Positions 1,275 to 47,298 of a DNA stretch of 64,000 nt are shown here, piece after piece. Both the position numbers and the translations under genes were made by a program. The stretch comes from Candidatus Heimdallarchaeota archaeon (GTDB lineage Archaea > Asgardarchaeota > Heimdallarchaeia > Hodarchaeales > Hodarchaeaceae): NCBI GenBank assembly GCA_011364965.1, contig RDOB01000004.1, positions 180,369 to 244,368 of the forward strand. Direction: 5' to 3'. Below the pieces are notes generated by a model, which saw only the letters and a list, made by a program, of their open reading frames with translations, did no database searches and was not told the origin of the DNA. The stretch's first letter is position 1. Every line of letters begins with the position of its first letter.

Positions 1275-1484
1275 ATGTTCAGCACAATTTTACGAGGATT
1301 ATCAGTAGCTTTTCTTTCTTCTATTGTAATATCATTAATGTTGGTCTTTTTTACACCAGTATTGCCATTTAACATACTGACTGGGGATTTAGCAATCCCG
1401 TTTTTCTTTATAATTGTGATTATTTCATTTATTGTTTATTTAATATTACCATTGGAAACAGATTTCTCTTCTCAAGATCTTTAA
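1275..1484 (+). CDS. Small two-TM membrane protein
   Basis: Two hydrophobic segments; tightly packed between nadC and the next gene. Confidence 0.6.
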   Translation: MFSTILRGLSVAFLSSIVISLMLVFFTPVLPFNILTGDLAIPFFFIIVIISFIVYLILPLETDFSSQDL

Positions 1485-1487
1485 AAT

Positions 1488-2237
1488 TTGATTGAGGGTA
1501 AAGAAATGAACACTAAAGATGGATATAGTTCAAAAAGAGCAGAAATTGACTCGAAATTGATTTCTCCTAATTCTTGTATATATGGAGAAGCTAAAGTTGG
1601 CTATAATGCAATTATCGACCCATTTGTAATAATAGGTTACCCTATTCGGGCTAAAATTAAGGAAATTTTACAGAACGAAAGCAAAGAGCTGGATTTGCAT
1701 GATTATTATGATCAAAAATCATCTGGGGCAATTATAGGAAAACATAATCATATTCGCTCATTTACAACAATTTATGAGATGTCCACTTTGGAGGATGAAG
1801 TAGAAACAGGAAATAATGTACTTATTAGAGAAAAATGTCATATAGGAGCTGGGAGTATTATTGGTAGTGGTTCAATCTTAGATAGCGGAGTAATAATTGG
1901 TAAAAAAGCTCGTATTCAATCAAATAATTTCATACCCCCTAAAATTTCAATTGGAGATGATGTTTTTTTGGGGCCCAATGTTGTGTTCGCAAACGATCGA
2001 TATCCAGTAAGTACGAAATTAATCGAAACCAAAGTAGAAAATAATGTTAGAATAGGAATTGGTTCGATTTTATTACCAGGAATAACTATAAAACAGGGAG
2101 CGGTTATAGCTGCAGGTTCTCTTGTCACAAAAGATGTTCAAGAATTTAGCGTTGTTAAGGGTTCTCCTGCTACGGTGATAATGACACGAGAAGAATATGA
2201 TGAAAAGAAAAAGAGCTATGAAGACTCGGAATATTAA
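1488..2237 (+). CDS. Left-handed beta-helix (hexapeptide) acyltransferase, probably a sugar N-acetyltransferase
   Basis: Repeated IG/VG hexapeptides, FLGPNVVFAND, ILLPGITI..GAVIAAGSLVTKDV...GSPA. Confidence 0.85.
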   Translation: MIEGKEMNTKDGYSSKRAEIDSKLISPNSCIYGEAKVGYNAIIDPFVIIGYPIRAKIKEILQNESKELDLHDYYDQKSSGAIIGKHNHIRSFTTIYEMSTLEDEVETGNNVLIREKCHIGAGSIIGSGSILDSGVIIGKKARIQSNNFIPPKISIGDDVFLGPNVVFANDRYPVSTKLIETKVENNVRIGIGSILLPGITIKQGAVIAAGSLVTKDVQEFSVVKGSPATVIMTREEYDEKKKSYEDSEY

Positions 2238-2239
2238 GA

Positions 2240-2539
2240 TTAACGTAATGAGCATTCACATGGACTTTTTTGGCATTTAGGACAAATAGATGGATATTTC
2301 TCCCAAGCAACTTTCTCTAAGTCTATTCCAAATAAATTACACACCGAGCATAACCAAGCAAATACATCAGCCACTTCTTCTTCTAATACATTCATATTGT
2401 TTTTCAAATAAGCTTCGAATAATTCTCCCATTTCAGTTTGAAGCCAAATTAAAGTTTTTTCTTGCCCTCTAATTCGGTCTCTTTCCCCATAAAGCTGATT
2501 CATTAGAATTTGAAACTCAGAAATTGAATGTTTTGACAT
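2240..2539 (-). CDS. MazG-like nucleotide pyrophosphohydrolase
   Basis: WL.TEMGEL.EA and EEEVADVFAWL motifs, C-terminal CPKC..PCEC. Confidence 0.88.
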   Translation of the reverse strand: MSKHSISEFQILMNQLYGERDRIRGQEKTLIWLQTEMGELFEAYLKNNMNVLEEEVADVFAWLCSVCNLFGIDLEKVAWEKYPSICPKCQKSPCECSLR

Positions 2540-7373: not shown

Positions 7374-8522
7374 TTACATTATCTTCTCCACTTCATCCGC
7401 AATGTCAACATATGTAACATCCATGCCGCCCAATCCCATGATTTTTTGATGCAAGTCGATTTCCATTTTATTAGCAAATAGTTCTGACTGTACTTCGATT
7501 GCAATTTGACCAGCATTTCCAAAGGAAACTGCGCGATCTATAATTAAAACCTTGGGTATTTTTTTCAGACAAGCAATCAACTCTTTCTTAGGAAACGGAC
7601 GAAATATACGTGGTCTGATAGTAATTGCACGAATCCCTCGTTCAGCCAACACAGCAAGGGAGTTTTCTGCCTCTTCTCCTAAAGTGCCCAGTGCGATAAT
7701 TCCTACATCAGAGTCATCGAGATTTCCTGTTACCTCAATCATGTCCCCGCTTAATCTTCCGAATTTATTGGCAAACTCACGAAGAATTTGAGGGATAATC
7801 ACCCGAGCATTGTTGAATCCATCAATTAATGACATTCGCTGTTCCCAGATCCCTTTGGAATCCGTTAAAGATCCATGAGCAAAGGGATTATCGCTATCTA
7901 ACATTGCTAAAGGTTTAAAAGGAGGAAGAAAATCATCCACCTGCTCTTGGGTTGGAATATTAACTTGAGCTGATGTATGACTCAGGATGAAACCATCGAG
8001 ACACACCATCACTGGCATCCAGATTTTATGATGCTCAGCAATTTTAAACGCACAAAGTGTCAAGTCCAGTACTTCTTGATTATTCTTCGCATATAACTGA
8101 ATCCAGCCAGCATCTCTAAATGACATACTATCTTGATGGTCTGGCCAAATGTTCCAAGGATTCAGAGATCGATTCACCACAGGCATGACAATAGGGATTC
8201 GAGTTAAACCTGCCCACCAAACTAACTCCCCCATATACAATAATCCATGTGAGCTTGTTGCTGTGAAGGTCCTCACACCGGCGAGAGAAGCCCCAATAGC
8301 AGCGCCCATTGCGCTGTGTTCGCTTTCAACATTAATATATTCACAATCAAGTTCTCCTGAAGCAACCATTCCAGAAAGAGTTTCTACTATTTTTGTTTGA
8401 GGAGTAATAGGATATGCAGCGATAACTTGGGGTTTAGCTAACCTAACTGCATTAGCTACAGCTTCATTCCCTGTTAATAATGTTACATTGGTATCTTCTA
8501 AGGTTTGTACCATTTTTTTCAC
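7374..8522 (-). CDS. porA: Pyruvate/2-oxoacid:ferredoxin oxidoreductase alpha subunit
   Basis: GNEAVA, AYPITPQT, ESEHSA, TATSS.GL, DGFILSH. Confidence 0.94.
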   Translation of the reverse strand: MKKMVQTLEDTNVTLLTGNEAVANAVRLAKPQVIAAYPITPQTKIVETLSGMVASGELDCEYINVESEHSAMGAAIGASLAGVRTFTATSSHGLLYMGELVWWAGLTRIPIVMPVVNRSLNPWNIWPDHQDSMSFRDAGWIQLYAKNNQEVLDLTLCAFKIAEHHKIWMPVMVCLDGFILSHTSAQVNIPTQEQVDDFLPPFKPLAMLDSDNPFAHGSLTDSKGIWEQRMSLIDGFNNARVIIPQILREFANKFGRLSGDMIEVTGNLDDSDVGIIALGTLGEEAENSLAVLAERGIRAITIRPRIFRPFPKKELIACLKKIPKVLIIDRAVSFGNAGQIAIEVQSELFANKMEIDLHQKIMGLGGMDVTYVDIADEVEKIM

Positions 8523-8798
8523 CTACTCAGGTTTCATCTCCAAAGCACCTTTAGGACAGACATGTACACACATACCACACCCTTTACAATAAACATAGTC
8601 CACATAAGGGAATTCTCCCTTTGAATCGACACGAATTGTACCTTCTGGGCATGCTACCCAACATTGATAACACTTTATACAATTTTCTTCAATAAAAACA
8701 GGTTTACTTGTTCTCCACGTCCCAGTATTTCCCGCTGATCCTATAGTTGGCCTTCCCAAAGGAAGAACGGGATCTTTCAATTCATGTTCTTCAGTCAA
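8523..8798 (-). CDS. porD: 2-oxoacid:ferredoxin oxidoreductase delta (2x4Fe-4S) subunit
   Basis: TGTWR, CIKCYQCWVACP and CKGCGMCVHVCP. Confidence 0.93.
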   Translation of the reverse strand: MTEEHELKDPVLPLGRPTIGSAGNTGTWRTSKPVFIEENCIKCYQCWVACPEGTIRVDSKGEFPYVDYVYCKGCGMCVHVCPKGALEMKPE

Positions 8799-38801: not shown

Positions 38802-39005
38802 TCAAGTAACTTTGATTTTAGGTTCGTATTTCTTAGTCCACTTGAATTTTCGGGGATCACGTTTGAAATCAATTAAGGAACGTTTGCATTTACGACTACA
38901 AAGCCTAATTACTTGACCATTTTTCCGTACAAAGGAAAAACCAGTCCCTGGTTCAATATCATGGGCACAGAACGCACATTGGAATATTCTTACCATTGGA
39001 TTCAC
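38802..39005 (-). CDS. rpl24e: 50S ribosomal protein L24e
   Basis: C.FC..DIEPGTG...V..NG.....CS.KC, PRK.KWT. Confidence 0.95.
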   Translation of the reverse strand: MNPMVRIFQCAFCAHDIEPGTGFSFVRKNGQVIRLCSRKCKRSLIDFKRDPRKFKWTKKYEPKIKVT

Positions 39006-39015
39006 CTTTTTATTA

Positions 39016-39231
39016 TTATGGACGCTTCAAGTTTCGAGCTTCTCGCTCTGTTTCTCGGAGCATTAGGACATCACCTTGTCTTATTGGCCCCTTTACATTA
39101 CGAACAATAATTCGTCCTCTATCTCTGCCTTCTAGGACTCGAACTCGAACCTGTGTGATTTCTCCTGTGACACCAGTTCGACCGATGATTTGTAATACTT
39201 CCGATGGTATGGAGATATCTTCCTCACTCAT
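39016..39231 (-). CDS. rps28e: 30S ribosomal protein S28e
   Basis: IIGRTG.TGE.TQVRV, RNVKGP.R.GD.L.L.ETEREAR. Confidence 0.97.
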
Positions 39232-39250
39232 TTAACAATCACCGAAGTCT

Positions 39251-39628
39251 TCAAATTCCCGCCAACTCTTTTATTCGAGTTGCTAAATTATCTATTTTAG
39301 CTTTTGCTTCGCCTTCCTTGACTATTGAGCAGCTAGCAGTCTTTACACCAAGATTACAGGCTTTTCCGAGTGAATCCTTGCTTTCCACAAATAGGTAAGG
39401 TATTTTTTTGTCCTTACACAGAAGGGGTAAATGAGCAACAATTTCTGGAGGATCCACGTCCATTGCAATGAATACTAATCGTGCATCTCCACGTTCGATA
39501 CTTTTTGTAGTCTCATTTGTACCTTTACGAATATTTTCAGGATCTGTACTTACAGTTTCCAGCACAGTTAAGGCATCATTTTCTAGGCCATCAGGTTGAT
39601 CATAATTTACAAAAAATGGTTTACTCAT
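39251..39628 (-). CDS. rpl7ae: 50S ribosomal protein L7Ae
   Basis: KGTNETTK..ERG.A.LV.IA.DVDPPEIVAHLP.LC. Confidence 0.97.
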   Translation of the reverse strand: MSKPFFVNYDQPDGLENDALTVLETVSTDPENIRKGTNETTKSIERGDARLVFIAMDVDPPEIVAHLPLLCKDKKIPYLFVESKDSLGKACNLGVKTASCSIVKEGEAKAKIDNLATRIKELAGI

Positions 39629-39635
39629 ATGATTG

Positions 39636-39687
39636 CGACCTCCAGGGTCTTATTTCGAATTGAATAGTCATACCCAATCCTTGGTCG
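39636..39687 (-). promoter_or_regulatory. Tandem K-turn hairpin in the rpl7ae 5' UTR covering the Shine-Dalgarno
   Basis: Minus strand CGACC-AAG-GA-TT-GGG-TAT-GA-CTATT...AATAA-GA-CCC-TG-GA-GGTCG: two 3-nt bulge + tandem G:A motifs; GGAGGT lies in the 3' strand. Confidence 0.75.
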
Positions 39688-39770
39688 GGCATTTTAAACG
39701 CTCTACTCGTAATAATAAAAAGGTTCGTTAAGACCTATCAGAAAAAGAATGTGTTTTTTCAATTATATTT

Positions 39771-40910
39771 TCATTTCTTCTCTCGCTGAAGGTATTCCTT
39801 TGGATTAATGCCATAATAATGCAAAATTTCAGCCGTTTTTCCTGTAATCACAAGCGGTGCGTGTTTCAATTCATTAATTGACTGACAACCTGTTAAAAAA
39901 CATGTTAATCGAATTTGATATTCAATTTCCTTGATCAGCGCGATTACGGCATCTGTAGAATGAGATTGAGTAGCAAAAAGGAATGGGATTGCCATCCCAG
40001 CTGCATCAGCTCCAAGAGCAATTAATTTTGCGACATCCAATCCATTTCTTACTCCTCCTGACCCAATTATTACACCTTCAAAATTTTTTGTCGATAAAAT
40101 AGTACTAATTGCTGTGGGAATTCCCCAATCCCAGAAGATTTCTCCAGCTTTCTTTAGTAGAGGAGTGTTGGCACGAATTGATTCTACTCCAGCCCATGAA
40201 GTTCCACCAACACCTTGAATATCTATCGCAGAGAATCCCATCTCTTTGATTGATTTTATATCTTTGAGGCTAAATCCTGATCCGACTTCTTTGGCAATAA
40301 CAGGAACTTTGCTACTTTTAATTATTCTTGTGGTTTTAGCTATCAATTCTTTAAGATCAGTATCGCCTTCAGGTTGGATAGCTTCTTGTAATGGATTGAA
40401 ATGGATAGCAACTGCTGTTGCTGAAATCATATCTGCAATTTCATTAAACTCATCCCCTGATAATCCAAGTGCTATCTGTCCCGCTCCAATATTTCCTATG
40501 ATCAGAGAATCAGGTGCTTGTTCTCTGACAATCTTAAATGTCTCTCTGAGATCTTTATCTTCTAAAGCTGCCCGTTGACTTCCTACACCCATTCCGATAC
40601 CTAATTTATTAGCTGCTTTAGATAAAAAATGATTTAATTTGTAAGCAAAATCATGCCCTCCAGTCATCCCAGATATTACCAAAGGTATATTTAGTTTCTT
40701 GCCAAATATTTCAGTAGATATATCAATTTCGTTTAAAGAAAGCTGAGTTGTAGCTCGATGGATAAAAGAAATGTCATCTAAGCCAGTTGTTACTGTTTGA
40801 GCTTGAACATCGTGTTCTAAACATATCTGAAGATGAGCTAATTTTCTATCTGAAGTGATAGATTCTTTTTCGTCCGCTTGATCTTTCGATTTTGTATATT
40901 GAATTTCCAT
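39771..40910 (-). CDS. fni: Type 2 isopentenyl-diphosphate isomerase
   Basis: RK..HL.IC, MTGG, GVGSQR, N.G, H.N.LQE..QPEGD, KEVG.G, GGTSW, SGG.RNG.D. Confidence 0.96.
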   Translation of the reverse strand: MEIQYTKSKDQADEKESITSDRKLAHLQICLEHDVQAQTVTTGLDDISFIHRATTQLSLNEIDISTEIFGKKLNIPLVISGMTGGHDFAYKLNHFLSKAANKLGIGMGVGSQRAALEDKDLRETFKIVREQAPDSLIIGNIGAGQIALGLSGDEFNEIADMISATAVAIHFNPLQEAIQPEGDTDLKELIAKTTRIIKSSKVPVIAKEVGSGFSLKDIKSIKEMGFSAIDIQGVGGTSWAGVESIRANTPLLKKAGEIFWDWGIPTAISTILSTKNFEGVIIGSGGVRNGLDVAKLIALGADAAGMAIPFLFATQSHSTDAVIALIKEIEYQIRLTCFLTGCQSINELKHAPLVITGKTAEILHYYGINPKEYLQREKK

Positions 40911-40942
40911 TCACCATTCGCTCGCTATTCACATATTTTTCT

Positions 40943-41530
40943 TCACTCTGATTTTTTTCTTTCATTCCAACGTTTAAAACTAGTATTAGGGATATTCAAG
41001 CAATCTAATACTTTACCTGTGATGAAATTGTACAAATCCTGAAGTGATTGAGGATTATGATAAAATCCGGGAGCTAGGGGGAGAATAGTTGCACCATAGG
41101 TGGCTAATTTTGCTAGGTTGTGAAGGCATGCAGGGCTTACTGGGGTTTCACGGAATGCTACAATCAGAGATTTACGCATTTTTAGCATATTATCTGCAGC
41201 ACGAGAGATTAAATCTCCTGTATACCCATTTGCAATGTTACTCACGGATTTCACTGTAGCAGGAATGACTATCATACCATCAACAAGGAATGAACTACTT
41301 GATATTGATGCACTCATATTTTTATTATCATAGAGATAGTTTACGAGACTCTCAAGGTCTGAGAGCTTTAGTTCTGTTTCATCAGCTAACACATAATTTG
41401 CCCACTCACTTGTAATAACATGAACTTCTATTCCATTTGCTTTAAGAGCTTTAATAACCTCTATACCGTAGATAATCCCAGAAGCTCCAGTCAAGCCTAC
41501 AATAATTCTTTTAGACTCCAAATCACACAC
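40943..41530 (-). CDS. ubiX: Flavin prenyltransferase UbiX
   Basis: G.TGASG..YG, A.ISS.S, L..RAAD..LK, RETP, P.FY..P. Confidence 0.93.
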   Translation of the reverse strand: MCDLESKRIIVGLTGASGIIYGIEVIKALKANGIEVHVITSEWANYVLADETELKLSDLESLVNYLYDNKNMSASISSSSFLVDGMIVIPATVKSVSNIANGYTGDLISRAADNMLKMRKSLIVAFRETPVSPACLHNLAKLATYGATILPLAPGFYHNPQSLQDLYNFITGKVLDCLNIPNTSFKRWNERKKSE

Positions 41531-41641
41531 TCACCAGATGAGAATGGAATATCTGTTTCAAATTCTGAAAGTTTGAGGGGTAATTAATAATTGTGTCCTA
41601 CTTTGAGGAAATAATAAAATTATTATTATTTTATTTCAATC

Positions 41642-41812
41642 TTACTCCTTTTCTAGCTTAATCCCTTCTTGTGTAATTCCAATGTCAATAAGCATTATAC
41701 CATGATCTTTCCATTCTTGAATAACCATTTCAGAAGCTCTTTTACTAAAAGCTACTCCAATACTACATCACCCCCTTCGACACCTGAAAATTTTGCAACA
41801 GCTCCATTTCAT
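41642..41812 (-). pseudogene. Remnant of a GHMP kinase, most like MvaK2-type phosphomevalonate kinase (C-terminal about 55 codons)
   Basis: Minus strand reads NGAVAKFSGVEGGD, then after a 1-nt frameshift SIGVAFSKRASEMVIQEWKDHGIMLIDIGITQEGIKLEKE*; preceded by AGGAGA + ATG out of frame; not in the ORF track. Confidence 0.7.
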
Positions 41813-41979
41813 TAGTATCTTCTCCTATTTGAAAGCTCGTTTGAATTTATTATGTTCTATGTAAATCAACCCTTAATTAAGCTCCTCGTTGAGAAAAGCA
41901 AAAATAAAATATTAGAAAAAAAGAAGTTTTTATGGTCTCAGGAACGGAGAATAGAGAAAGAAAGGGGAGAAAGAATGAT

Positions 41980-42369
41980 TTATTGGACTTGAACTGTTGC
42001 ATTATTCGCATCGATTGAAAGTTTCATACCAGTAGAAATTTGGGAAATATCAATCTGATCTACACAAGGAATCTCCCCGATAATACATCCAACTGCAACA
42101 ATGGCTTCGCAATCTTTAAGAATAAGCCCCTTCGGACCCTTACCAGTTTTAGCCATTTGATAGAGAACATAGGATCCAACAGTAGATCCTTTACCTGAGG
42201 GAAAGACCAAAATTTTGTCCACGATGCTTTGGCCTTCTAATTCATGGCCTTTTTCAACTACAATACCATTTTCTGGATCAACACCACCGTAAAAAGAAAT
42301 ACTTTGAGTGGTAACCAAAGCTTCTCCTTCAGTTTTACCTTTGTAGATTCTTCTACCTGTTAATTTCAT
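41980..42369 (-). CDS. Phosphomevalonate dehydratase small subunit (AcnX swivel domain, DUF126)
   Basis: G...GEALV....ISF.GGVDP..G...E..H.L.G.S...KILVFP.GKGSTVGSY; TAATG overlap with large subunit. Confidence 0.92.
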   Translation of the reverse strand: MKLTGRRIYKGKTEGEALVTTQSISFYGGVDPENGIVVEKGHELEGQSIVDKILVFPSGKGSTVGSYVLYQMAKTGKGPKGLILKDCEAIVAVGCIIGEIPCVDQIDISQISTGMKLSIDANNATVQVQ

Positions 42370-43565
42370 TATTCCATAGCCTCCTCTAAACATTTATCCA
42401 TCGACATTAGCTTCACAGAAAATTTATTCCGACCCGATCCATAATAACACATCTTAGCTGAATCGGATGCTAATCCATGGAAACGACCCTTTATAGGAGC
42501 GACAACACAGCAGGTATCAGCAGCAATTTTCGCACCAGAGTCCTCAATCATCTTTGTGAACCCCATACGATCTGCAATCTGTTTTGTTGGACGAGCAGTT
42601 GTAATCCAAACTTCTTTCTTGGGATTGATTTTCTTCCCTTCAAGTTTCTTGGCAATATATTCTAATTCAGATAATGAAGCATGGGGACAGCCAAGACTGA
42701 TGAAATCTATTTCAGTGTCATCATCTAACTCGCTGAAGGCTTTTTTCATATCAGCATCAGTAACATCTATGCTTTCATCAGGAATTTTCTTGACTCTATC
42801 AGGAGTAATTCCTTCCATGTGGAAAAGTGCCACACCGCCATATGTAGCATAAGAGGCACAGAACGATTTAAGCTCTTCAACAGTTGCTTTAGGAATACCA
42901 GTAATGTAGGTTATTTTATCACCTAAACGGTCCCCTAAAACCTTTCCCAAAGCACCGAACTGGTAAGTACCTTTAACCTGTGTTTTAACATTAATACGAA
43001 TTTCGGGTTGACGATTCTCCTCAAGATGAAATCCGTATTCGGGGGTTTTACCAACAAGAGCAGCACTCAGAGCACTAGGTCCGCCTTCACGATTCGTACG
43101 CGCACCTAAAACAGAGTTAGCGTAACAAACTGCACTACTTTCCGACCAAGCAATGTGTTGACCATAATGAGGCAGATTTCCATATAAATAGGGGGTACAG
43201 GAACATGTAGTAATAATTCCCATCCTTCCAAAGGCATCAACAACTCGCTGTTGATTCCTAGCAAACTCTTCATTAATAGCAAGTTTTCTCCATTCTTCTA
43301 GATCCATTCCTGCGGGATTCAGGGTGGTAAAAACTCGCACTCTGCCATCGTTGGCCATATCTGCTAGCCAATCAAGGCCTGGTTCATTTAAATTAGCATA
43401 GCTGACACCTGCTACTTGAACAGATGTTATTTCAATTAAACGCTTTGCGCCGTAAATTTCACCTAAAGTTATCAAAATTTCCATTGCTTTTCTAGTAGCT
43501 TCTCCATATTTCCCTTCAGCCATTTCTTGTTCTTCAGTAGTAAGTTCCATTTTCTTTAACCTCAT
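42369..43565 (-). CDS. Phosphomevalonate dehydratase large subunit (aconitase X, DUF521)
   Basis: GVSY, TTLNP, C.CTPY, AWSESSAV..ANSVLGARTNREGGP, GCPH.S, DTC.VVAP, SAK..Y. Confidence 0.92.
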   Translation of the reverse strand: MRLKKMELTTEEQEMAEGKYGEATRKAMEILITLGEIYGAKRLIEITSVQVAGVSYANLNEPGLDWLADMANDGRVRVFTTLNPAGMDLEEWRKLAINEEFARNQQRVVDAFGRMGIITTCSCTPYLYGNLPHYGQHIAWSESSAVCYANSVLGARTNREGGPSALSAALVGKTPEYGFHLEENRQPEIRINVKTQVKGTYQFGALGKVLGDRLGDKITYITGIPKATVEELKSFCASYATYGGVALFHMEGITPDRVKKIPDESIDVTDADMKKAFSELDDDTEIDFISLGCPHASLSELEYIAKKLEGKKINPKKEVWITTARPTKQIADRMGFTKMIEDSGAKIAADTCCVVAPIKGRFHGLASDSAKMCYYGSGRNKFSVKLMSMDKCLEEAME

Positions 43566-44872
43566 TATTCAATATAATCTCTCAAATCCACCTTGGGAAA
43601 TTCTGCTTTAGCAAATCCCTTACCCTTGGTAACTAGGGGAGCTGTAAAATCGAATCCCACTTTATTAGTGATCTTTGTTCCAGGTTCAGCGCTTGGATCA
43701 AGGCTTGACCCAGGTTCTTTCCCTATATCTACAAGACCACTTTCAGCTTGGAATCGTGTCGCCATAGACCATTCTACTTCAAGCGGGTCATAAATATTAA
43801 TGTCTTTATCTACTACAAAGACATGTTTACAACTACGATGCCCCTGAAACGCGGCGTGAATCGCTTTCTTTCCATCATCCTCATTTTGTTTATCAATTTT
43901 TACAATAGCATGTAACCAAGATGATCCCCCAGGGTTCACGTTGACATCCAGGCATTTCACACCTGCTTCATTCACCGCTTTGTAAATTGTAGGTTCACGA
44001 GGCATTCCCATTAGGACTTTATGCTCTAAAGCGCCGGGTAAGAGGGCCTGCCAAATCGGGTTTTTGCGATGAGTGATTCTCCTAACCTCAAAGACAGGTT
44101 CTTCGCGAACTATATCATAGGTTTCAGTCAGATCTATGAATGGCCCTTCATTTGAGCGATCATTCATAAATACTCTTCCTTCAAGTACAAACTCGCATCC
44201 TGCAGGAATAATTAGATCAAGAGTAGTCGCTTTTGTAACTTCCATTGGAGAAAGAGCATTAGCTATTTCCAATTCATTTATCCCTGTTTTCACCGAGGTT
44301 GCTGCGGCGACCAATACATTAGGAGTATTCCCAACACAATAAGCTGCATCTACTTCCCCATTTTTCTCAAGGAATTTATAAAAGTCCCGTCCTTTGATTA
44401 TACGGGTACTCATTCGATTCGCAGAGAATTGCATCGCACGATGAAAGTCAAGATTCTGCCCAAATTCTGAATCTTTGGTTACCACAACTGCAGAAGAGAT
44501 ATATCGTCCGCCATCACTTTCATTATGTTTTAAAATGGGCAATTTGTCAAGATTGACGCCATTCATGACGACCTCCTGACAGGGAGCGTTGGTTATTACC
44601 TCTGGTGGGCTTCGTTTATCAATTGCTTCCGTAAGTCTCGGAATCAACTGGGATGTTGTAATTCCGAAATAATCTGCGATACTAGTTTTTGTACAAAAAA
44701 CATTCCCAGCCACACGAAAATTAGGATATCCTTTGACATTTTCAAATAGTAGAGGGGTAGGTTCTGCTGTTTTTAGGACAGCAGCTGCTTCAATATCTAT
44801 ACTAACTTCTTTTTTAATTTTCGTGATGGAACTATTTTTATCAAGTTTTTCTATATACTCTCTAAAATGCAT
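43565..44872 (-). CDS. UbiD-family decarboxylase, probable anhydromevalonate-phosphate decarboxylase
   Basis: LP.L.H...DGG.YI, N...HR, E.VLEG, EGPF.D.T..YD, VVD.DI..YD...VEW..ATR.Q, SSLDPS; operon context with mvk and acnX. Confidence 0.88.
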   Translation of the reverse strand: MHFREYIEKLDKNSSITKIKKEVSIDIEAAAVLKTAEPTPLLFENVKGYPNFRVAGNVFCTKTSIADYFGITTSQLIPRLTEAIDKRSPPEVITNAPCQEVVMNGVNLDKLPILKHNESDGGRYISSAVVVTKDSEFGQNLDFHRAMQFSANRMSTRIIKGRDFYKFLEKNGEVDAAYCVGNTPNVLVAAATSVKTGINELEIANALSPMEVTKATTLDLIIPAGCEFVLEGRVFMNDRSNEGPFIDLTETYDIVREEPVFEVRRITHRKNPIWQALLPGALEHKVLMGMPREPTIYKAVNEAGVKCLDVNVNPGGSSWLHAIVKIDKQNEDDGKKAIHAAFQGHRSCKHVFVVDKDINIYDPLEVEWSMATRFQAESGLVDIGKEPGSSLDPSAEPGTKITNKVGFDFTAPLVTKGKGFAKAEFPKVDLRDYIE

Positions 44873-44907
44873 TTTTTATCACCAAATAATGTTTTATTTC
44901 ATAAAAT

Positions 44908-45846
44908 TCAGACTCCAATTTTTGTTTTCCATGCAGGGAATCCTGCATTTGTAAGTGATTTGTAGACTTTATCTTGAAGTTCAGCTCCAGGGGTTAAGCA
45001 GTTAATATTTCCCCCACGACCGGTACCAGTTACTTTAGCCCCGAGAGCACCCGCTTTTCTAGCAATCTTAACCATTTTATCTAACTTCTCATTGGAAACG
45101 GTTATTTGCTGAAGTAAACCATGATTTTTATTCATTAATTGACCAACTCGTTCTAAATCCATTTCATCAAGAGCTTGTCGAGCTTCCTTCATAACATCTT
45201 GATACTCTTTTATTATCTTATCAAACCAATCAGGATTTTCTTCTTTCTTTTTCCGAACATCAGCTACGACCACACTCGTATTAGCTGTCATACCTGAGCT
45301 TGCAATTACCATCTCCACTGGTTTTGCAACTTTGATTGTTTCCATGGTGTTTGACCCACCTTCTAGATTTTTCACAAAATATACTAGTCCTCCGAAGGTG
45401 GATGCCGTATTATCGATTCCACTTGGCGTACCATGATATCCTTTCTCTCCCTCATATGCAGCTTCGTTTATTTTGTGATCATCCCATCCTAGATTTAATT
45501 CATCGTTTATAGCACGAGCTAAGGCAACACAACTGGCTGCAGAGGCCCCAACACCACTTGCACAAGTTAAATTTCCTCCAAGAGTGATATCGAGATGCTT
45601 TCGTTCCAAATCTACGCCCATATAATCTATTATATTTTTTATTGATATTTTTTGTTCATCAAATTTTTTCTCTTTATAACCAGGCACTTCTGGCCTGTCA
45701 TCTATGAGGTTGTACCCTCGTCCTTCAGTTATCTTTACCTCTGCATCAGTAGAATCCCCAATTGCAGAAGCAAGAGCGGGTAAACCATACACAACGAAAT
45801 GTTCACCAAAAAGGATCGTTTTACCGAATCCAGAACCTTTTCCCAT
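44908..45846 (-). CDS. mvk: Mevalonate kinase
   Basis: GK.ILFGEHFVVYG.PA, SG.G.SAA, HG.PSGIDN, GAK.TGTGRGG. Confidence 0.93.
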   Translation of the reverse strand: MGKGSGFGKTILFGEHFVVYGLPALASAIGDSTDAEVKITEGRGYNLIDDRPEVPGYKEKKFDEQKISIKNIIDYMGVDLERKHLDITLGGNLTCASGVGASAASCVALARAINDELNLGWDDHKINEAAYEGEKGYHGTPSGIDNTASTFGGLVYFVKNLEGGSNTMETIKVAKPVEMVIASSGMTANTSVVVADVRKKKEENPDWFDKIIKEYQDVMKEARQALDEMDLERVGQLMNKNHGLLQQITVSNEKLDKMVKIARKAGALGAKVTGTGRGGNINCLTPGAELQDKVYKSLTNAGFPAWKTKIGV

Positions 45847-46104
45847 TATTAAGTTCTCCTATATTAAAAACTAAATCTCTAATGAGATCTATAATTACTT
45901 TTAGTGTTATTTTATCACTAATCTAAAAATCTTCTACTGTAATTATTATCTTCAAATTGCCACTATGGATTGAAGTTGACACTTAAAGCTATTTTTTTTT
46001 CTTGATAGAGAGTAGGGTTGGTTTATTCATCTCAAGAATTGGAAGTTGTCCATTATATGGTGGGAAAGAAAAATTGAAATAGCTGTTCTTGATAGCTTCC
46101 TATC

Positions 46105-47298
46105 ATGAGGACTCTGACAGATGTACAGTTGGAGGGAAAAGTCTGCTTAACTCGTGTTGATCTAAACTGTCCCCTTGATGAGAATTTGAATCTTTTAGAT
46201 ATAACTCGAATAAAAGCTCATGCAGAGACTATCAAATTCATCTCTGACAGAAAGGGGAAGGTTGTAGTTATTGCACACCAAGGACGTCCAGGAAGCTCGG
46301 ATTTTAGTAGTTTAAAGCTCCACGCGGAAAGCTTGGGAAAAATTCTTGGTGCCAAATATACTGTGGTTTTTATTGCCAAAACTCATGGTCCCGAAGTGGA
46401 AAATAGAATTAGAAAAATGAAATTGGGGGAGATACTGGTACTAGAAAATGTGAGAATGGTTGAAAATGAAACTAAAGAGAAACCTGCAACTGAACACGCA
46501 CAAGACATTTATATTCAGAGTCTTGCTAAAGTGGGAGATATCTTCGTGAATGATGCCTTTTCAGCTGCACATCGTTCACATGCAAGTTTAGTGGGCTTCA
46601 CTCCTTTAATGCCCTCAGTTGCAGGATTAATAATGGCCAAGGAAGTCCAAAGTCTCCAACGTGTAGTTGAAAACCCTGAAAAACCCTGTGTATTTATTCT
46701 TGGAGGAATTAAACCTGAAGATTCATTTAAAGTAGCTGAACATGTACTTACAAATGATATAGCTGATTATATATTAACAGGAGGTGCTGTGTCTCAAATA
46801 CTACTTGTTGCAACAGGAAAATCTCTTGGGACTCCCTCAATGGACTTTCTAAAGAAAAAGAATTTATTAAAATTCATTGATATCGCTAAATCGCAAATGG
46901 ATCGTTTTGGTGGTAAAATTAAATTTCAATCTGATTTTGCCATTAATGATGGGGGCCGTAGGATTGTAACTTTGAAAGATCTCCCTCTGAACTTTCCAAT
47001 TTTGGACATAGGGAACAAAACTATAGAAGAATTCAAAGAAATCATTAAAAAATCTTCTACCTGTGTTTTAAACGGACCTATGGGAAAATTTGAAGACGAA
47101 GGATTTGATGTTGGTACTGTAGAAGTATTTAAAGCAATGGAAGAATCAAAAGGATTTTCATTGGCTGGTGGGGGGCATAGTGTATCAGTTCTTGACAAAT
47201 ATCAAATTAATCTTTCCTATGTAAGTACTGCGGGTGGTGCAATGATTCAATTTCTTATGGGGAAGCCTTTACCCGCAATTATGGCCCTAAATTCCTAA
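46105..47298 (+). CDS. pgk: Phosphoglycerate kinase
   Basis: RVD.N.P, AHQGRP, LLENVR-like LENVR, NDAFSAAHRSH.S, NGPMG.FE, GGGH, STAGGA. Confidence 0.96.
   Translation: MRTLTDVQLEGKVCLTRVDLNCPLDENLNLLDITRIKAHAETIKFISDRKGKVVVIAHQGRPGSSDFSSLKLHAESLGKILGAKYTVVFIAKTHGPEVENRIRKMKLGEILVLENVRMVENETKEKPATEHAQDIYIQSLAKVGDIFVNDAFSAAHRSHASLVGFTPLMPSVAGLIMAKEVQSLQRVVENPEKPCVFILGGIKPEDSFKVAEHVLTNDIADYILTGGAVSQILLVATGKSLGTPSMDFLKKKNLLKFIDIAKSQMDRFGGKIKFQSDFAINDGGRRIVTLKDLPLNFPILDIGNKTIEEFKEIIKKSSTCVLNGPMGKFEDEGFDVGTVEVFKAMEESKGFSLAGGGHSVSVLDKYQINLSYVSTAGGAMIQFLMGKPLPAIMALNS

Follow-up and report, generated by a model that had tools for sequence, protein, structure and literature searches.

A phosphomevalonate kinase remnant in the archaeal mevalonate operon of a Hodarchaeales genome

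[quoted passage not shown] The archaeal mevalonate pathway was reportedly first shown in Aeropyrum pernix, by Hayakawa et al. in 2018. A summary of that pathway is given in [quoted passage not shown] (Microorganisms 2024; PMC11052028), which also cites the classical mevalonate pathway in archaea such as the Sulfolobales. The paper states that most Heimdallarchaeia MAGs, Hodarchaeales included, have both PMK and DMD (MVD), and Hodarchaeales in which PMK and DMD share a contig with AcnX and AMPD (UbiD) were already published there. Its text mentions neither pseudogenes nor gene loss. A later preprint links eukaryotic mevalonate/isoprenoid synthesis to Asgard ancestry (PMC12338589).

The window analysed here is a 64,000-nt stretch of one contig of a Hodarchaeales genome (G000 below). 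Loci from sister species of the same genus (on contigs JAEOTQ01, JAEOTM01, DXJL01, NJBF01) come from the same order of Asgard archaea as the published hybrid clusters and have the same gene set. These sisters encode mevalonate kinase (MVK), PMK and MVD, which make up the classical lower pathway; in Hodarchaeales the classical genes are embedded in the operon of the archaeal route. Unlike the published clusters, the window species lacks the PMK/DMD part and retains only a 55-codon stump. As the coexistence of both routes had already been published, the gain from this study is incremental; what is new is a clear relic that documents how the window species lost the eukaryote-type branch, and a second relic in another species of the genus (G019).

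Sulfolobales PMK belongs to a different subfamily; on its model (NF040957), which has a cut-off of 500 bits, the Hodarchaeales PMK scores only 95. Over its full length, the intact sister PMK aligns with structure 3K17 (Listeria innocua Lin0012) at E=1.8e-42, and this structure and 1K47/3GON (Streptococcus pneumoniae PMK), the closest ones, have the same SGxGGGDCGIA...EW..GI ending as the sister PMK. The stump aligns to C-terminal motif III and the tail of these GHMP-family enzymes (K-x-SG-x-GGGDC...EW...GI). Unlike them it has no motifs I and II and is frameshifted, and it is a pseudogene.

The mevalonate operon of the window genome

All genes of the archaeal mevalonate pathway are present and intact in the window genome. 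On the minus strand of the window lie type 2 IPP isomerase (IDI2, 39771-40910; TIGR02151, 385 bits against a cut-off of 281.3), the flavin prenyltransferase gene ubiX (40943-41530; TIGR00421, 205 bits against 108.9), the small subunit of AcnX, the phosphomevalonate dehydratase (41980-42393; PF01989, and NF003046 with 181.5 bits against 163), the AcnX large subunit (42369-43565; PF04412, 503 bits), a UbiD-family decarboxylase that is a candidate anhydromevalonate-phosphate decarboxylase (43565-44872; TIGR00148, 348 against 244.85) and MVK (44908-45846; TIGR00549, 231.9 bits against 163). Isopentenyl phosphate kinase (IPK) lies outside the operon, at C9:307876-308607 (NF040647, 153.7 bits against 120). 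This is the gene content of the archaeal mevalonate pathway, and five of the genes make up the operon around the fossil. The stump was found where the sequence-only reading had placed it, in the 449-nt gap between acnX-S and ubiX and on the minus strand like both neighbours.

The genome assembly is of metagenome type, with 16 contigs and an estimated completeness of 87%. Searches of this 87%-complete assembly with family models and sister proteins found no other PMK or MVD above cut-off; in particular, the sister MVD protein had no match and TIGR01240 had none above its cut-off. The GHMP proteins that were found are MVK and three unrelated ones, namely a galactokinase-like protein, a pantoate kinase and an unassigned 328-aa protein. 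With the archaeal genes intact and PMK and MVD absent from the 87% that is assembled, the archaeal route is complete and the classical lower branch is gone. IPP would then be made solely by the archaeal route, from MVK through AcnX and UbiD/UbiX to IPK, followed by IDI2. A second PMK or MVD gene may lie in the unassembled remainder of the genome.

The 328-aa GHMP kinase is encoded directly downstream of a 336-aa ORF (C14:99810-101806; L084:311-1297 and 1297-2307, minus strand). The kinase gives weak matches to galactokinase, MVK, HddA and IspE models, and the 336-aa ORF has no NCBIfam match.

The PMK remnant and its junction

Positions 41642-41808 of the minus strand correspond to the last 54-55 residues of a GHMP-type PMK, in two pieces. 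The proximal piece (NGAVAKFSGVEGGD, 41767-41808) has 14 codons and lies one base off the frame of the distal piece (CSIGVAF...EWKDHGIMLID...LEKE, 41642-41767), which has 41 codons followed by the original TAA and covers approximately PMK residues 331-371. When compared with sister PMK by tblastn, the proximal piece was 85% identical over query residues 318-330 and the distal piece 49% identical over residues 329-371. Together they represent residues 318-371 of 371, and the first ~317 codons, about 85% of the protein, are gone. Neither piece contains an in-frame stop, an outcome expected in ~3% of random sequence of the same composition. Base 41767 is common to both frames because one T of GAT-TGT is gone. 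In a DNA alignment with the sister species G006, homology begins at ATGGAGC, extends through the stop codon and contains one 1-nt gap, where the window reads GGTGA-TGT and G006 reads GGAGATTGT. Given this one-base gap, the earlier proposal that restoring one T rejoins the two frames is exact.

The identity of the remnant was assessed with protein family models and sister proteins. The joined 55-residue peptide matched NCBIfam model TIGR01220 at positions 311-357 of 358 (E=5.6e-6), and its second and last match was an ERG8-type PMK model, also at the C-terminus. No mevalonate kinase model in NCBIfam was matched by the joined peptide, which bears out the earlier assignment to PMK rather than mevalonate kinase. 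When sister PMK was used as the query in a translated search of the whole genome, the fossil was found at E=1.3e-7. The fossil could also be aligned, each column in register, to the C-terminal ends of 113 full-length homologues. Twelve positions there are conserved in at least 90% of the homologues, and the fossil retains 10 of them. The only two changed are the two substitutions (A to V and G to E) in the glycine-rich loop of motif III, which turn SGAGGGD into SGVEGGD. Neither the joined nor the distal peptide had a match in Pfam, and a FolD match in NCBIfam obtained with the distal piece alone was dismissed as chance.

The remnant does not qualify as a functional TIGR01220 PMK. The N-terminal motifs I and II, for substrate and ATP binding, are missing, motif III is changed and has the 1-nt deletion before its Cys codon, and the joined peptide scores 25.6 bits against a cut-off of 165.7, below the threshold for functional members. 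Its homology, its orthologous position and its disabling lesions, namely truncation, frameshift and the lack of an in-frame start, instead identify it as a Hodarchaeales PMK pseudogene.

Immediately upstream is an ATG (41810-41812, minus strand) preceded by AGGAGA, a Shine-Dalgarno-like site. The sequence-only reading had described this ribosome-binding site and ATG as out of frame with the PMK tail that they adjoin, and the ATG does lie in the second frame. It shares the frame of the distal piece and reaches a TGA after 14 codons. The short ORF that it opens (MKWSCCKIFRCRRG, 41769-41812, minus strand) is rich in Cys and Arg, and the PMK tail resumes in frame past its TGA; most likely this ORF is a meaningless out-of-frame reading of the PMK motif.

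The 13 bases at 41807-41819 (minus strand, GATACTAATGAAA) match the MVD start of the clade-A sisters (GATGCTAATGAAA) at 12 of 13 positions. They are what is left of the beginning of MVD, now fused to the PMK tail in a different frame. In the whole window, both strands included, 0.24 such 13-mer matches are expected, and one falls exactly at the junction. By eye, the MVD start of G006 is the same less one codon (ATG ATG AAA). The deletion junction can be placed within ATGAAA|TGGAGC. Upstream of it, 41813-41979 is the former acnX-S/MVD intergenic region, which now separates acnX-S from the fossil. It has T-rich tracts beyond the end of acnX-S, the AGGAGA site and, at 41856-41865, a TTTACATAGA box whose distance to the ATG downstream is 53 nt here and 58 nt in G013. 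No PMK similarity was found in the 167 nt upstream of the fossil. The resemblance of this spacer to that of G006 is modest, with a local alignment score of 57 against 38+/-6.5 for shuffled sequences (p~0.01); it is weaker for G013 (p~0.05) and not significant for G020 or G021. These MAFFT and local alignments are weak and driven by composition, rising marginally above shuffles only for G006 and G013. Because the spacer homology is weak, the evidence on the upstream side is carried by the junction 13-mer. Downstream, the PMK-ubiX intergenic spacer is retained (41531-41641, minus strand); it is 111 nt long, and its equivalent in G006 measures 124 nt with genes in the same order.

Since the 13-mer corresponds to the MVD start of the sisters, the simplest history is one deletion of about 2 kb. 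An MVD-PMK pair would once have stood co-directionally between acnX-S and ubiX in the mevalonate operon. The deletion would have run from just past the first MVD codons (..CTA ATG AAA) to about PMK codon 317, joining the MVD start and the PMK tail out of frame and leaving both flanking spacers in place, and decay after inactivation would have added the 1-nt deletion and the two motif III substitutions. The deletion was probably a single event, and the classical branch was presumably functional before it was lost. The sequence-only reading had proposed an internal deletion of the PMK gene. A deletion was indeed found, but it was not confined to that gene: it took MVD and most of PMK, and the region of the ATG and ribosome-binding site matches the start of MVD, not that of PMK. 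Taken as a whole, the explanation that the stump is a non-functional PMK 3' end left by a ~2-kb deletion from an MVD-PMK pair is very probably correct.

The 55 codons are no more diverged from the PMK tails of G006 and G020 than those two tails are from each other. As only 55 codons remain and their synonymous sites are saturated, the loss is not datable from the fossil. It may have been recent relative to the species splits, as the sequence-only reading had held, although this is a soft point.

Sister loci and alternative explanations

The earlier expectation that intact PMK and MVD genes would occupy the syntenic site in sister genomes was borne out. At least five sister species have MVD and PMK between acnX-S and ubiX, and both genes are complete in three. 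A PMK-model search of the window's genus found full-length PMK above the curated cut-off in four species (MAGs YT2_065, YT2_004, MAG_8 and B3_Heim, labelled Hodarchaeota/Heimdallarchaeota). The gene order in G004, G013, G020 and G002 is FKBP, L7Ae, IDI2, UbiX, MVD, PMK, AcnXS, AcnXL, UbiD, MVK and PGK, and the ORFs at the variable site are 341 aa (MVD) and then 371 aa (PMK). Sister MVD scored 336 bits on TIGR01240 (cut-off 171), and sister PMK scored 216 bits on TIGR01220 (cut-off 165.7) against 123 bits on the ERG8 model, a closer fit to the bacterial/'Gram-positive' model by HMM score. In G004, G013 and G020 the dN/dS of PMK and MVD was 0.04-0.09, with AcnXS and UbiX in the same range and synonymous sites near saturation. 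Judged by these ratios, PMK and MVD are under purifying selection in the three species, which speaks for a working classical branch there.

The pair is oriented against the operon in G004, G013, G020, G002 and G021 and with the operon in G006, and the fossil has the G006 orientation. In a FastTree tree of seven concatenated locus proteins (unrooted), G000 is sister to G006 with a support of 0.994. In G006, one contig ends with acnXS-MVD(1-200) and another starts with PMK(104-371)-ubiX-IDI2, all on a single strand; as the locus is split over two contigs, the adjacency of MVD and PMK there is inferred. Together with the fossil, the intact syntenic pairs of the sisters support the earlier claim that this lineage carried the classical branch and then lost it.

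In G002 (B3_Heim, NJBF01000038; L019:8535-8639 and 7531-8538, minus strand) the PMK is interrupted near codon 35, where the frame of residues 1-35 overlaps a second one that encodes residues 35-370, and NCBI annotates the 347-aa part only. This gene may be at an early stage of pseudogenization, or the split may come from an error in sequencing.

Several other origins of the stump were weighed against deletion from an MVD-PMK pair. An intact pair may have been collapsed by mis-assembly, or a rare deletion allele may have been picked from a mixture of strains. In favour of this are the metagenome-type assembly and the place of the 1-nt loss in a TT dinucleotide, where a base-calling error is conceivable in principle. 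However, a search of 39000-47000 found no repeats at the junction able to mediate collapse or recombination, and MVD/PMK sequence occurs on no other contig of the genome. Independent of the junction are a frameshift and two changes at motif positions that are invariant elsewhere, and the six neighbouring operon genes are full length relative to the sisters, without frameshifts. As the neighbours are so cleanly full length, general noise in the assembly is an improbable source of the lesions. An artefact of assembly or strain mixture is considered very unlikely, although a minority or majority strain may carry an intact cassette. A 29-mer from acnX-S, searched as an exact pattern, had no match in metagenome contigs. 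A second thought is that the likeness to PMK arose by chance or that the stump derives from another GHMP kinase such as the MVK of the operon. The shortness of the 55 residues, their low score and the lack of a Pfam match would fit this, but the top two HMM matches are both PMK models and both lie at the extreme C-terminus, 25 of 27 DNA bases are shared with the PMK of G020, and the position, strand and distance to ubiX agree with the PMK of G006. The operon MVK has KVTGTGRGGNINC as its motif III, and its tail also differs from the fossil. These differences mean that the fossil is not a copy of the operon MVK, and the lack of any MVK-model match likewise rules out its being a duplicate of that gene. 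The chance of such an origin is close to negligible.

The stump might also be useful in its present state, as a promoter or leader for ubiX-idi2 or as a micro-protein made by read-through, and this would be compatible with its origin as a fossil. The coding sequence was deleted and both flanking spacers were left, the T-rich tracts after acnX-S resemble terminators, a TATA-like box and the Shine-Dalgarno-like site precede the ATG, and the frame of the ATG and that of the distal tail are the same, with one TGA between them. However, the 14-codon ORF is the out-of-frame PMK motif, the junction was seen in no other genome, and an Rfam scan of 41450-42050 gave only a chance sRNA match (E=0.67) below the gathering score. 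In eight sister genomes ubiX follows acnX-S at only 33-130 nt, which argues that no such leader is needed. A present use of the stump is therefore regarded as unlikely. The reverse history, in which the sisters gained the cassette by insertion and the window holds an abortive or partial insertion, draws on the variability of the acnX-S/ubiX junction, which holds unrelated genes in other species, and on the two orientations of the cassette. Yet a deletion, and not an insertion, would leave the start of MVD fused to the tail of PMK. The cassette or its traces occur on most major branches (clade A, G006, G021, G015, possibly G014, and the G019 fossil), PMK and MVD identities follow the species tree, and an MVD-PMK-like pair is present in another family of the class. 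An origin by insertion is thus highly improbable.

Distribution of the classical branch in the genus

The survey covered 22 genomes of the window's genus. The MVD-PMK pair is complete in three (G004, G013 and G020), present with a frameshifted PMK in one (G002) and cut by contig ends or gaps in five (G006, G021, G018, G015 and possibly G014), and two genomes hold PMK fossils (G000 and G019). No trace of PMK or MVD was found in the remaining genomes, about ten species of the 22. Archaeal-branch genes, by comparison, are present at every locus assembled that far. The sequence-only reading had left it open whether AcnX/UbiD was kept or gained by this lineage, and these data agree with the former and not with the latter. 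Because traces fall on most branches of the unrooted tree, ancestral presence and repeated loss are favoured, though the tree was built from the locus itself and fixes no number of losses.

The fossil in the window species is direct evidence that the patchy distribution of PMK and MVD in the genus comes from loss. A syntenic fossil shows that the absence of PMK and MVD from a Hodarchaeales genome can result from loss, and it supports ancestral presence and decay over scattered acquisition as the source of the patchiness. The genus also offers a comparison set in which both branches (G004, G013, G020) can be set against the archaeal branch only (G000). It had been suggested earlier that the fossil bears on which isoprenoid pathway the archaeal ancestor of eukaryotes used. 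The Hodarchaeales are indeed the relevant group, but the weight of the finding is smaller than was thought, since the coexistence of both routes is already published (PMC11052028), and the fossil of one species shows the direction of change within the genus, which is loss, and not the pathway of the eukaryote ancestor. A broader reading can be put forward tentatively, with its parts taken together at slightly short of an even chance: the operon of the genus ancestor encoded both fates of mevalonate-5-phosphate, AcnX/UbiD and PMK/MVD, only PMK/MVD was repeatedly lost, and the eukaryotic stem fixed the opposite outcome. The losses that can be cited for it are the two fossils (G000 and G019) and the ~10 species without a trace. 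If it is true, the window would represent the resolution of an ancestral redundancy caught in progress.

The fossil in G019 (C25:30030-30173; L053:8031-8174, minus strand) is independent of that in the window and retains a ..VVGGENCSVGVCFDQKIAEGLIAEWQQHGIRPINIG.. stretch (GGENCSVGVCF... tail). Its AKFSGAG part is gone and no PMK similarity was found upstream of it. A co-directional EutA-family gene follows it after ~100 nt. The mevalonate operon of G019 is far away, on a different contig, and its acnXS-ubiX junction is clean. The partial PMK of G015 was considered as a third fossil and rejected, as it is open right up to a run of N, which is an assembly gap. Runs of N occur in this single-contig genome near position 2734340 of C1 (L020:8342 onward), and its "complete" record appears to consist of scaffolded or concatenated contigs.

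The site between acnX-S and ubiX varies across the genus, and unrelated genes stand there in other species. In G003 (L049:571-2550), G017 (L050:780-2732) and G014 (L052:760-2712) it contains an adenine-deaminase-like amidohydrolase of 650-659 aa on the same strand. In G008 (L051:529-3483) there is a 984-aa ORF on the opposite strand with no Pfam match, along with partial duplicate pieces of acnX-L and acnX-S. On contig C7 of G018 (L021:1-2300), a PMK tail is succeeded by 30 codons from the 3' end of acnX-S in reverse, beyond which stand acnX-L and acnX-S, both turned against the rest of the operon. A second acnX-S is found on contig C158 of the same genome, and the arrangement points to inversions with duplication.

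Two further sets of GHMP kinases were noted. G001 (C2:57003-57950; L066:~1000-1950) and G016 (C100:4412-5362) are the most divergent species of the genus, and in both a 345-aa GHMP kinase occupies the position of MVK. It has less than 40% identity to the window MVK, and its N-terminal half is closer to the PMK model (E~1e-11) than typical MVKs are. Outside the genus but within the same class, 6 of 7 genomes of family f4, genus g5, have MVD and a shorter PMK-like gene in the same order, at loci including G037:C55:50387-51867, G029:C202:756-2624, G027:C67:7787-9264, G033:C4:105209-106684 and G025:C21:7867-9342. This PMK-like GHMP kinase (313-325 aa) directly follows an MVD that scores above its cut-off. 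Its TIGR01220 score is far under the cut-off, the N-terminal half giving E~1e-17, and it may represent a shorter, divergent PMK lineage.
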